64,000 nucleotides of DNA from an uncultured Spirochaetota bacterium. Its GTDB lineage: Bacteria > Spirochaetota > Brevinematia > Brevinematales > JAOACQ01. The notes beneath the pieces were generated by a model. That model had not been told where the DNA came from and ran no database searches. It saw only the letters and a list, made by a program, of their open reading frames with translations. Within the stretch, counting starts at the first letter, position 1, and the number at the start of each line of letters is the position of its first letter. Location of the stretch: positions 1,248,001-1,312,000 of the forward strand of contig CAVYGN010000002.1 in the NCBI GenBank assembly GCA_963768055.1, read 5' to 3'. Below are positions 44,699 through 48,506 of this stretch, piece by piece. The translations under genes and the position numbers were made by a program.

Positions 44699-46069
44699 AT
44701 GTCTCTGCGCACTTTTCTCGCTAAAGTCGATAATAAGGACATCAGGCGGGGGTTATATTTTTCCAACCTTGACGGCATAGTCTGGGCTGTGATGTTCGGG
44801 CTCGCGGAGAATTTTATCGTACCTTTCGCGCTGCTGTTCGGCGCTTCTGTCCTCCAGGTCAGCCTGATAACGGGGTTCGGGCAGCTCGGGGTAGGGATCT
44901 CACAGCTGGCCGGGGCGAGGTTCGTAAACTGGCTGAAAAAGAGAAAAATATTATCGACTGTCTGTGAAATTATCCATGCCCTGTCATGGCTGTTAATGTT
45001 CATCTTCACTGCTCTCACAGGGAATCCCTGGTTCGTAGTCGTTTTCTACACCATAGGGCTTACCGTAAACAATTTTGCAGGGCCGGGCTGGCTTTCCTGG
45101 ATGCACGACCTGATGCCTAAAAAAGTAAGGGGCGAATACTGGGGTATCCGCAACCGCTACATGGGCGTGGCTCAATTAATATCGATTACAGCGGCCGGGA
45201 CGGCTCTTTTTATAGCCAGGAGAAATAATTTCGAAGAGCTGGCGTTCGGTTTCCTGCTGGTTGCGGGTTTCGCCTTCAGGTTTTCAGGGGTCTTTTTTCT
45301 TCAAAGGCAATATGAACCCCGGATGAAAGTCACAGAGGAAAGCCATACTTTTAAATTCCATGTATTTTTAACGAAGCTGTTCACGACCAATTTCGGGCGT
45401 TTTGTATTCTTCAGTATAATGCTCACTTTTTCTTCGAACCTGGTGGGGCCGGTCCTGCCCGTTTATTTCCTCCAGAGCGTGCGGCTGAATTATCTCCAGT
45501 TTACTGCCGTGATGATGGCTGGTGCGATAAGTTCCTTCGTTTTCATGACTTACTGGGGCCCATTATCGGATAAATACGGGAATTACAGGGTTCTGATAAT
45601 ATCATCTCTCGCCCTTCCCCTCATAGGTTTCGGATGGGCATTTATCAAGGACTTCTACCTGATGATCCTGCTGCAGATCTTCAGCGGTTTCGTATGGGCG
45701 GGGGTAAACCTCGCGACAAACAATTTTATATTCGACGCAGTAAGAAAGGAAAACATGCCCAAGATCATGTCATATTTCAATATGCTCAATACCTTCTGCA
45801 TTTTCCTCGGGGCCCTGACTGGCGGCGCTTTGATCGAATTCCTTCTCAAATATAAATTCTCTTTCGGTATTTTCAACAGCTTTACGATCATATTTCTTTT
45901 TTCGGCACTGCTGCGGATAGTCGTTATCGCGGTCTGGCGCGGCAGCTTCAAAGAAGTAAGGGATACGGAAAAGTCGCCGAGGTTCCACTATTTCTTTATC
46001 TATAAACCCGCCCTTGAAATGCTCGATTTCATACAGGAAACGAGCGAAAGGATATTCCGGAGAAAGTGA
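44699..46069 (+). CDS. MFS transporter
   Basis: About 12 TMs; WGPLSDKYGN motif. Confidence 0.88.
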   Translation: MSLRTFLAKVDNKDIRRGLYFSNLDGIVWAVMFGLAENFIVPFALLFGASVLQVSLITGFGQLGVGISQLAGARFVNWLKKRKILSTVCEIIHALSWLLMFIFTALTGNPWFVVVFYTIGLTVNNFAGPGWLSWMHDLMPKKVRGEYWGIRNRYMGVAQLISITAAGTALFIARRNNFEELAFGFLLVAGFAFRFSGVFFLQRQYEPRMKVTEESHTFKFHVFLTKLFTTNFGRFVFFSIMLTFSSNLVGPVLPVYFLQSVRLNYLQFTAVMMAGAISSFVFMTYWGPLSDKYGNYRVLIISSLALPLIGFGWAFIKDFYLMILLQIFSGFVWAGVNLATNNFIFDAVRKENMPKIMSYFNMLNTFCIFLGALTGGALIEFLLKYKFSFGIFNSFTIIFLFSALLRIVVIAVWRGSFKEVRDTEKSPRFHYFFIYKPALEMLDFIQETSERIFRRK

Positions 46070-47394
46070 CGGGTAGGAACCACAGATTTCACAGATTGCA
46101 CGGATGGATTGGGATGAATGGGGGTTCACCGAAAAGATGCAAAGGTACGCAGAGAGGGAAAAATCCGCAGATGGATGGGGAATCTTCCGCGAAGCCACGC
46201 GAAGGGACATTAAGATTTTAGGATAAAATTAAGCTTTCAGCCGATTTAAAAATTTCATATTAGATATTCTTAGGAAGTTGCAAGTTAAATCTTTCAAACC
46301 TAACCCCATCACTACTTATAACACTTTCTATAATCTCTTTACCTTCATCATCTTCTCGCGTTATTTCAAATCTTTGCTTTAAATCTGTTAATTTCTCTCT
46401 TTCTTCAATGGGTTTAGATATTAATTCAATTATTCTATTGTTTAATAATAATTCTGGGAAATCTTGTCTACCATATTCAATAATGTTATTATTATAAACA
46501 TTATTATTAAAATAGCTAGAAAGATGTGATGACATAAAATCAAGTAATTTGTGTTCAATAGCTTCTATAATTAATTTTCCAGAGCTATTTAATGGTTTTG
46601 ATGGCTTATTTTGTTCGATCGGTTCTTTTTTCCAAGCTTTTAATAAAGCTTTATTTTCAATAAAAGTGGAAGTTAAAGTTTATATATAAGCCATTCACAA
46701 AATCATAATTAGGGATATTGATTAATTTTTTATTTGTTTCATCATAAATAAAAAAACAATCAAAATTTTCGGAATAATTTAAACTTTTTAATTTTTTTAT
46801 CGAAATGTATAATAAAGAAAATGAACATAATAAAATACCAATAATTAACAATTTTATATTATTTTGATAAAAAAATAAATAATTTGAAATAGTGCTGGTT
46901 CCTAATGCTAAAAGAAAAGCGATAAAGTAAATTTCAAATAAAAGTCCTCTTTGTGTTAAAAATTGTTCAACAACTTTTTTGTTATTAAAACCATCTTTAC
47001 TCAAAGTATTTATCCTTAATTATCAAAAATTCTTAGACATTATAATATAATATTTTGTTTTTGTAAATGCTTAATGAATAATAAAATCGGATATTTCCCA
47101 GTGATTATTTTAAGGGTTTACAGAAAAATTTTAGATAAAGTGTAAATAATTTGATGGTCATTAAAATAATGCGGATTTAACAAATTCCTAAGAAATGGAA
47201 AGCATGGATAGGCTATTTATCAGTGAAATCAATTTCTAATTATCGTATTATATCTTAAGAATGTTATTCGCATGCCTTCGCGGAAAACCATCCCCAAAAA
47301 GAAATGAATGAAAACGTAAGATTCACAACTTACAAAAATTAATGTAAAATCTGCGTAATCTGCGAAATCTGTGGTTCCAGTCCTCCCCCGTCTA
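46070..47394. mobile_element. AT-rich cassette bounded by nested inverted tandem repeats, with no mobility gene
   Basis: Outer IR 46076-46105 / 47349-47378 (26/30); inner IR 46185-46203 / 47267-47285 (17/19). Confidence 0.6.
46260..47004 (-). pseudogene. Frameshifted AT-rich gene, 2 N-terminal TMs plus a soluble domain
   Basis: ORF 46657-47004 continues after a +1 shift near 46660-46680 as TSTFIENKALLKAWKKEP... into ORF 46260-46535. Confidence 0.7.
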
Positions 47395-48372
47395 TTACCT
47401 CAATCCCCTAATCGCCTTTATCCTCTCCTTCATCAGCATATCGATATCCGCTGACGTCTTGGGGTCCATCTCCCAGTCGGCGGCATGGTAGGTTTCGGCT
47501 ATCTGCTCCGGACGGCGCGCGCCGACAATTGCGGCAGTAAGTTCAGGCCGTCGAAGGACCCATGCTATTGCAAGCTGTGAAACGGTCCTTCCGGCTTGTC
47601 CGGCTATACGGGAAAGTTTTTTCACATAATCAAGGTTTATCGAAAGTTCGGGCTCCTGAAAATGGCTGTCATACCGCCTGTGATCGTCGGGAGGCAGCCC
47701 TTCCATACGTTCGCGCGTGAAGCCTCCTGTTAAAAGCCCCTTATACATCGGGCTGTAAGATATCACCCCTATCTTGTTTTTATAGCAATAGCCTAAAATT
47801 TCATTTTCTATTTCCGGGGAGATCATGCTGTATGGAGGCTGGAGGCTGGTCACGGGGTAAAGTTTTTCTGCCCTTTCAATCTGGTAAGTGTTGAAATTCG
47901 ATAATCCTCCATACCTGACTTTCCCTTCTTTAATAAGCTCGTCGATTGCCAGCCAACCCTCTTCTATTTCATAATCCGGTTCAGGCCAATGTATCTGATA
48001 CAGGTCGATAGCTTCTATTCCGAGGCGTTTAAGGCTCGATTCCGCTTCTCTTTTGATGCTGTTTTTTTTCATGCTTCCGCTGATATTTCCATCTTTATCC
48101 CATACCCTTTCGCATTTTGTGGCTATCAGGGGCTTTTCCTTCATTCCCTTTATAGCCTTTCCGACCATTTCCTCCGAGTGTCCCAGGCCGTAAACTGCCG
48201 CCGTGTCTATCCAGTTGATCCCCACTTCAAGGGCTTTGAATATTGTCTGAACGGACAATTCGTCATCCTGCGGGCCCCAGGAAAACCGCCAATTACCGCC
48301 GCCGATAGCCCATGTCCCGAGGCCGATAATGCTTATCTCCAGAGCGCTCCGGCCAAGTTTTCTCTTTTTCAT
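47395..48372 (-). CDS. Aldo/keto reductase
   Basis: GLGTWAIGG, WIDTAAVYG, IATK, DLYQIHWP, GLSNF. Confidence 0.95.
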   Translation of the reverse strand: MKKRKLGRSALEISIIGLGTWAIGGGNWRFSWGPQDDELSVQTIFKALEVGINWIDTAAVYGLGHSEEMVGKAIKGMKEKPLIATKCERVWDKDGNISGSMKKNSIKREAESSLKRLGIEAIDLYQIHWPEPDYEIEEGWLAIDELIKEGKVRYGGLSNFNTYQIERAEKLYPVTSLQPPYSMISPEIENEILGYCYKNKIGVISYSPMYKGLLTGGFTRERMEGLPPDDHRRYDSHFQEPELSINLDYVKKLSRIAGQAGRTVSQLAIAWVLRRPELTAAIVGARRPEQIAETYHAADWEMDPKTSADIDMLMKERIKAIRGLR

Positions 48373-48506
48373 CGGATCCTCCATTTATATAATATTTATA
48401 AAATAATAAAAATTTTAGAAATCGGGTAAAGAAAGAAGTCAAATGCATCTTTTCCCCTCAGCCTGCACTTAAGCTAAGTATAAATTTAAGCACTTGGAGG
48501 TGCGTT

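Follow-up and report, generated by a model that had tools for sequence, protein, structure and literature searches.

An insert of ~1.3 kb, at positions 46070 to 47394 of the window (the whole 64,000-nt stretch of DNA that was analyzed, from a genome here called G000), separates convergent genes for an MFS transporter and an aldo/keto reductase (AKR) (Table 1). Two nested inverted repeats lie where the initial annotation had placed them: the outer one (I1; 30 nt, 87% complementary) ranked first among the inverted repeats of the region, and the inner one (I6) is 19 nt long and 89% complementary. The GACGGG and CCCGTC ends and the unpaired left arm (46129-46154) that it described are also present, as is its sharply AT-rich interior, with 23% GC between the inner arms compared with mostly 44-56% in adjacent genes; no recombinase is found inside the insert. 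Its description of the whole as one symmetric unit holds for the nested pairs, but full symmetry is broken by the extra left arm and by a lone motif (47217-47230), which lies within the inner arm pair, points away from the cargo, and fits no nesting order tried. GACGGG is possibly an eroded outermost repeat layer; we infer an old layer here from its resemblance, by eye, to the GACGGGAAGG lead of arms in G004 (a genome of the same genus) and its absence from the corresponding junction in the relatives G001 and G002. The idea that CCCGTC is plain host sequence was dropped, as similar leads stand on G004 arms. The sigma70-like match upstream of the cargo can be read as a consensus match only, because the whole region holds 8 promoter-type sites, no more than the shuffle mean of 8.5. 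A search against Rfam returned just two chance-level matches (E about 4).

Table 1. Features of the insert and its flanking genes; positions are those of the window.
Feature	Position	Strand	Basis or remark
Host MFS transporter gene, left flank	44699-46069	+	PF07690, E=1.5e-25; stop codon at insert edge
GACGGG, overlapping the MFS stop	46068-46073	+	Position
Outer left arm, type A (9-bp-period CACAGAT units)	46076-46105	+	Inverted repeat I1
"Unpaired" arm, type C (CGCAAAG-like units)	46119-46154	+	Alignment to GxxExxY element end
Inner left arm, type B (CGCGAAG/CGCTAAG units)	46185-46203	+	Inverted repeat I6
Cargo pseudogene	46260-47004	-	tblastn to P0001
Sigma70-like promoter match, TTTACA-17-TATAAT, 35 bp upstream of cargo start	47039-47067	-	11/12 consensus matches
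Lone ATCAGTGAAATC motif resembling a type A upstream end in its inner half	47217-47230	+	Unexplained relic, weak
Inner right arm, type B	47267-47285	-	Inverted repeat I6
Outer right arm, type A	47349-47378	-	Inverted repeat I1
CCCGTC	47387-47392	+	Position; similar stretch kept in the probable near-strain short allele
Host aldo/keto reductase (AKR) gene, right flank	47395-48384	-	PF00248, E=1.3e-77

The supposed membrane-protein gene within the insert proved to be a pseudogene. A tblastn comparison with the homolog P0001 (397 aa) aligned residues 8-130 at 38% and residues 111-251 at 58%, in two different frames; the frameshift, near 46675, sits in a short A/T run where an assembly slip is possible. 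The reading stops at residue 251, about 60 bp from the inner left arm, and the missing last third was not found elsewhere in the genome. A contig from run X1 spans 46155-46345 without differences, so at least one set of reads, possibly that of the source sample, contains the truncated end. The cargo belongs to an unnamed family of proteins of ~370-400 aa with two N-terminal hydrophobic helices, comprising 744 clusters (50% identity) at E<=0.001; in the phylum sample it occurs in 2/401 genomes, G000 included. Pfam and NCBIfam gave no match to the cargo over cut-off, and no Pfam family was present in more than 1/106 members of the family. PADLOC, run on 3 cargo homologs, gave no match, an Atlas search with the cargo gave no usable match, and a metagenome scan with P0001 yielded 98 candidates, 0 of them confirmed. 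A structural model of a cargo homolog (pLDDT 89) had no clear fold match: the best Foldseek hit had E 0.02, and the best VIA hit (Z 7.7) covered only the N-terminal helices, in a comparison that barely took in the rest. Members of the P0001 family are usually more AT-rich than their surroundings, and the family is a candidate accessory or defence family.

Related genomes speak to the origin of the insert. The initial annotation had singled out the MFS-AKR junction of relatives as a place to look for empty or alternative cargo, and it is empty in two of the four same-genus genomes compared: in G001 and G002 the MFS and AKR genes are adjacent, their 3' ends touching or overlapping, without repeats. 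In G003 and G004 the MFS match has another neighbour. Pieces from run X4 are mostly 95-99% identical to the window, and one X4 contig (543 nt; depth 4.4) joins 46071 to 47407, with 384 nt aligned on the right, 84 on the left, and, judging from its length, ~75 other bases between them. In run X2, a loose end before 47407 looks by eye like positions 47377-47406 of the window and diverges on reaching the outer right arm. As the X4 contig skips the insert and the X2 loose end agrees, the species or a close neighbour probably has a short allele. Because the flanking genes abut without repeats in G001 and G002 and the X4 contig skips the 1.3 kb, the unit is an insertion. In G004, an empty type B doublet (L081:1968-2072) stands directly after the stop codon of the MFS homolog of the left flank gene; the next gene differs.

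The arms of the insert are traceable to a family of nuclease genes. The initial annotation had pointed to a link between inverted arrays of this kind and GxxExxY-family genes, and this link is borne out. Genome G000 (94.75% complete) contains 5 GxxExxY genes (PF13366, with a match at E=4e-37; PD-(D/E)xK-fold nuclease family), and 5/5 stand between inward-facing arms, which fall into four repeat types in all. Full-length members of the family consist of a GxxExxY nuclease gene between inward-facing arrays of 8-10-bp units. Window segments were aligned to 13 GxxExxY elements from G000, G003, and G004, with 60 shuffles each, and all five window arms scored above the shuffle maximum. For the outer left arm, the flank segment scored 47 on the end of element L125, where shuffles reached at most 29; the outer right arm matched best the upstream end of element G2 (41; shuffle maximum 31); and the inner right arm reached 33 against L119 (shuffle maximum 31). 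The inner left arm is identical over 22/22 bases to the downstream end of element L124 in G004, and the "unpaired" arm matches the downstream end of element G3 (C1:1532259; score 30, shuffle maximum 27, 0/60 as high). The outer, inner, and "unpaired" arms thereby match the ends of three different GxxExxY element types. Matches of the inner left, "unpaired", and outer right arms agree with a cargo placed and reading as a GxxExxY gene would; for the outer left and inner right arms, the scores do not separate the two ends. The lone motif scored 34 against element G1, with 4/60 shuffles as high for a short segment and 17/60 for a long one.

No GxxExxY remnant was recognized within the insert, whose spacer segments did not score above shuffles; with neither gene nor remnant inside, the insert is a non-autonomous derivative at most. 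Additionally, none of the 5 GxxExxY matches in the 94.75% complete assembly is of type B despite the type B arms, so the type B layer is either orphaned or its gene is unassembled.

The association extends beyond this genome. Across the phylum sample, G003, G004, and G000, 33/39 GxxExxY loci have at least 2 inward-pointing units and an arm label. On the GxxExxY protein tree, arm types cluster, with 9 changes where shuffled labels gave 15.0 on average and 0/200 shuffles went as low. It is a quick tree with crude arm labels from which fragments and L075 were left out, and this clustering does not prove co-evolution. The 5 genes of G000 occupy four places on the tree, beside genes of other genomes. 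In 150 other genomes of the phylum, at least 4 arm matches were found in 14/31 with a GxxExxY gene over cut-off compared with 12/119 without; the associated Fisher p=3e-5 is overstated, because the genomes share kinship. The PDB contains no sequence relative of GxxExxY, and a single-sequence fold of the protein (pLDDT 41.5) was not used. The type A upstream end at C1:1510162-1510656, like other such ends, carries a promoter-like match (TTGAAT-17-TATAAT) whose spacer is, by eye, an inverted repeat unit; hairpin formation or protein binding there could control the GxxExxY gene.

A profile scan identified 70 outer-type arms at a score of >=20 in G000, against 6 and 3 in two shuffles, and they are therefore not due to chance. 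Adding other unit types gave 84 arms, against 13-18 in shuffles. At a score of >=19, 79 arms yield 18 inward-facing pairs of <3.5 kb, which contain near-empty hairpins of ~50 bp, short spacers, two GxxExxY genes, or AT-rich single genes. That such arrays enclose variable genes elsewhere in the genome, as the initial annotation had anticipated, is confirmed: cargo in other arm pairs includes an ankyrin protein, a methyltransferase fragment, and, at C1:1098738-1100926 (L168; 30% GC), a Septu-like anti-phage pair, PtuA/PtuB (PADLOC, E=8e-68 and 2e-9), which fills its arm pair at a convergent junction of host genes. Two sites in G000 agree at ~67% identity in their arms, their cargo, and the arrangement of both, which suggests that a cargo unit was once copied whole; an integrative element later split one of the two.

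Some arm-bearing loci are more complex. The cargo gene of one arm-bounded cassette is interrupted at C1:1371989-1383526 (L011) by an ~11-kb integrative element, which carries a tyrosine integrase and two IS copies and is bordered by a 12-bp direct repeat. Three arms pointing the same way (C1:974731, 975852, and 978918), each after an apparent tRNA 3' end (by eye), form a tandem series interspersed with IS remnants and small AT-rich gene pairs, and were probably duplicated with an island attachment site. Type C arms at C2:548005-552854 (L169) enclose a fragmented HD-phosphohydrolase-like gene, a two-gene insertion, which we take to be IS21-like, and an AEP-like ORF.

Presence of these elements varies widely among relatives. 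G001 and G002 lack both GxxExxY genes and exact type A arms (0 of each), and G004 has 9 of the former and 37 of the latter; G003 has 2 GxxExxY matches and 0 exact type A arms, its arms being of another variant, and G006 has 3 GxxExxY fragments but no exact arm. Element G5, which carries a GxxExxY gene, is missing from the orthologous junction in 4/4 relatives. Element G2 is absent from G001 and G002 (by sequence) and from G003 (by spacing); the G004 gap matching its site measures about 5.5 kb, and a G2-like element, 83% identical, occurs at another site in G004. In 6/17 G004 arm pairs, interior pieces of GxxExxY elements were found at 71-81% identity, identifying these pairs as deletion derivatives. 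Individual junctions are also filled differently. Junctions i and j hold type A arms and cargo in G000, short doublets of other types in G004, and neither in G002. Junctions e and h have type A arms in both G000 and G004 with different content, and are empty in G001 (e) and G002 (h); no arm of these types was seen at junction f in G004. In G004, arms of several types also nest around AT-rich cargo; one such case, of 4.4 kb, separates two convergent genes that are direct neighbours in G000. Deleted, empty, and cargo-filled forms exist side by side with full-length ones, and elements sit at different sites in relatives. The initial annotation had envisaged a hotspot where cassettes insert repeatedly into repeat hairpins. 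Insertion, and the differing content of the same junctions in a relative, uphold the first part of this idea; the picture shifts, however, from hairpins as passive targets to arms that are the ends of GxxExxY elements, with the insert as a derivative lacking the gene.

On balance, we think it probable, by a modest measure, that the insert belongs to a dispersed GxxExxY-nuclease repeat family as a member with cargo but no nuclease gene, mobilized in trans. Under this model, successive insertions would have built the insert, with GxxExxY nucleases encoded elsewhere in the genome as the predicted drivers. Each nuclease type would recognize its own arm type and nick or cut there. New elements would land beside stop codons and in many cases inside an older element, flanked by its arms; in the model this accounts for the nesting. 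Type A may have been laid down before type C, and type C before type B, perhaps on top of an old GACGGG layer. Foreign AT-rich DNA may have taken the place of the nuclease gene during repair or recombination, after which the arm-bounded unit could be copied whole; one right-hand arm and the 3' third of the cargo would later have been lost, or were perhaps never captured. Several results count against this model: the lack of a target-site duplication, the 12 genomes with arms but no GxxExxY gene over cut-off, the variant arms of G003, the lack of a type B gene among the GxxExxY matches of G000, and the mixed orientation of arms to cargo across the genome (by eye), together with the armless cargo homologs and the array in G392 described below.

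In the main rival to this model, the arms would be small hairpins, either selfish or acting at the RNA level, that accumulate at harmless sites downstream of stop codons; AT-rich cargo would arrive separately in this tolerated gap (by illegitimate recombination or as a stray cassette), and nesting would mark a neutral landing zone rather than capture. We judge this unlikely, though several observations fit it. Among 25 elements, 10 lie at convergent junctions, compared with 202/1484 background gaps (p=0.001; the element set was assembled by hand and gene calls were simple ORFs >=100 aa), and survival alone could give such an excess. Junction j is occupied by ~640 bp without recognizable arms in G001 and by 7.9 kb with IS genes in G003, and the cargo family of that junction has no visible arm in G001, where it lies near a contig end. 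The broken state of the window cargo can be read in the same way. The repeated centring of cargo where the GxxExxY gene would stand, with a pair of inward-facing arms around it, is harder to reconcile with separate arrival, as are the arms-plus-cargo layout shared by two sites and intact-looking cargo, such as the PtuA/PtuB pair, that tightly fills its arm pair.

The cargo family itself is mobile without arms. None of 26 loci with cargo homologs (many phyla, 25-45% identity) has an arm within 600 bp. Relatives carrying the same cargo without repeats, which the initial annotation had named as evidence against its proposal, are represented here in a loose sense, as 26/26 armless loci hold distant homologs rather than close kin. 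The only other member in the phylum sample, in G392 (L086/L089), is a frameshifted homolog that by eye lies in an attC-like repeat array; toxin-antitoxin-like pairs and an amidase-like gene adjoin it. The cargo is best regarded as a generic mobile gene whose armless homologs fit capture of passing DNA and independent arrival equally.

A host tyrosine recombinase or a transposase of another kind could instead move the units, with GxxExxY as the commonest passenger, for example as an addiction or defence nuclease; this seems to us quite improbable. The genome has 14 tyrosine-recombinase matches, two of them <900 bp from an arm. The closest candidate for a tyrosine recombinase acting on the arms was rejected, since it is part of an integrative element that had split a cargo gene and has a 12-bp direct repeat of its own there; the second lies beyond an intervening host-like gene. 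Ends that form hairpins by themselves (an arm, a loop, and an inverted half-arm) resemble paired recombinase sites, but the loop sequences differ between left and right ends. In addition, G000 contains no Y1/HUH transposase and no integron integrase over cut-off, and arm type tracks the GxxExxY tree. Pairing of the outer and inner arms with each other in the predicted fold of the whole insert would suit an RNA-level role, in which the insert is looped out or processed as in intervening sequences, and thereby tolerated, and DNA movement is incidental, but this is very improbable, since convergent stop codons flank the insert and no transcript needs rejoining.

The proposed mobilization by GxxExxY nucleases invites comparison with established repeat systems. 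As described in the literature, REPINs/RAYT, REPtrons, and TIRtrons are extragenic inverted doublets that form hairpins, with many gene-less copies; RAYT genes are few, each flanked by its own repeat group, and patchy among relatives, and they are described as unable to self-mobilize, mobilization in trans having been proposed (PMC3116915, PMC3733652). The G000 family is likewise composed of hairpin-forming extragenic inverted doublets in many copies (70 arms; 18 inward pairs among 79), with few enzyme genes that have their own repeat group, many gene-less copies, and patchy presence. It differs from these accounts in that the partner is a PD-(D/E)xK family protein (PF13366) rather than an HUH Y1 transposase; the arms are tandem 8-10-bp units and kilobase cargo is common; and the enzyme-bearing GxxExxY element itself is found at different sites in relatives, unlike RAYTs as described. 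No RAYT/Y1 transposase (PF01797; 0 matches) and no four-helix-bundle genes were found in G000 at its 94.75% completeness. The GTAG or CGTC tag given for REPIN ends (PMC3733652) was present at only 11/53 strong arms, in either direction within 27 nt outside.

MIC231 and MITEs have two inverted ends without a transposase around passenger gene(s), spanning 0.7-3 kb, with ends common to an autonomous element (PMC6199540; for such derivatives see also PMC6542083). Relative to what these sources describe, the insert is similar in its inverted ends around passenger DNA without a transposase and in the existence of internally deleted forms (G004). In contrast, the cognate element lacks a DDE transposase, the ends match GxxExxY elements and are periodic arrays, and several end types nest. 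Nor is a target duplication seen in the flanks of 25 elements, whose longest shared word measured 4.68 nt (controls, 4.75), though old duplications could have decayed.

Like integron cassettes, the units here hold single accessory or defence genes that are AT-rich and lie between repeats able to form hairpins, and a cargo homolog occupies the attC-like array in G392 (by eye); they are, however, dispersed and bounded by inverted rather than direct repeats. No match to the attC pattern (RYYYAAC ... GTTRRRY) was found on either strand of 46061-47400; because the 3' end of the cargo gene is missing, such a site could have been lost. The search for integron integrases in G000 at E<=1e-20 returned one partial TIGR02249 match of 87.8 bits against a cut-off of 265. 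The insert works like REPIN/RAYT and MIC231/MITE elements, yet it belongs to neither class, nor to integrons. Cyanobacterial small dispersed repeats, also mobile and very small, use short tandem repeats and one another as insertion sites; we know of no nuclease partner or gene cargo among them. A literature search, which took in few of the subscription journals, found no published description of GxxExxY repeat-bounded elements.

A broader proposal is offered tentatively, and we lean somewhat against its holding in full: GxxExxY proteins may be the mobilizing enzymes of an undescribed class of prokaryotic mobile DNA, predicted to use a restriction-like nuclease in place of DDE, HUH, or recombinase chemistry. 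Each type would read its own periodic arm code, target gene ends and older elements, and capture and spread accessory and anti-phage genes in the manner of integrase-free integrons, and the present locus would document three or four rounds of this process.

Since the cargo itself is broken, the value of the window locus is as a record of the process: a single insert combines three arm types that can all be traced to nuclease elements, and a relative reuses the same junctions. The nuclease-fold family GxxExxY (PF13366) is widespread, its function being listed as unknown (PMC3424549), and a single genus supplies the complete series of full-length, deleted, empty, cargo-filled, and nested forms, with a probable near-strain short allele in addition. 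The pairing of enzyme to arm is directly testable with cognate and non-cognate arms. If the nuclease is indeed the mover, these elements would represent a new chemistry of DNA mobility and, if so, a route by which defence genes such as PtuA/PtuB may spread without an integrase or a classical transposase.
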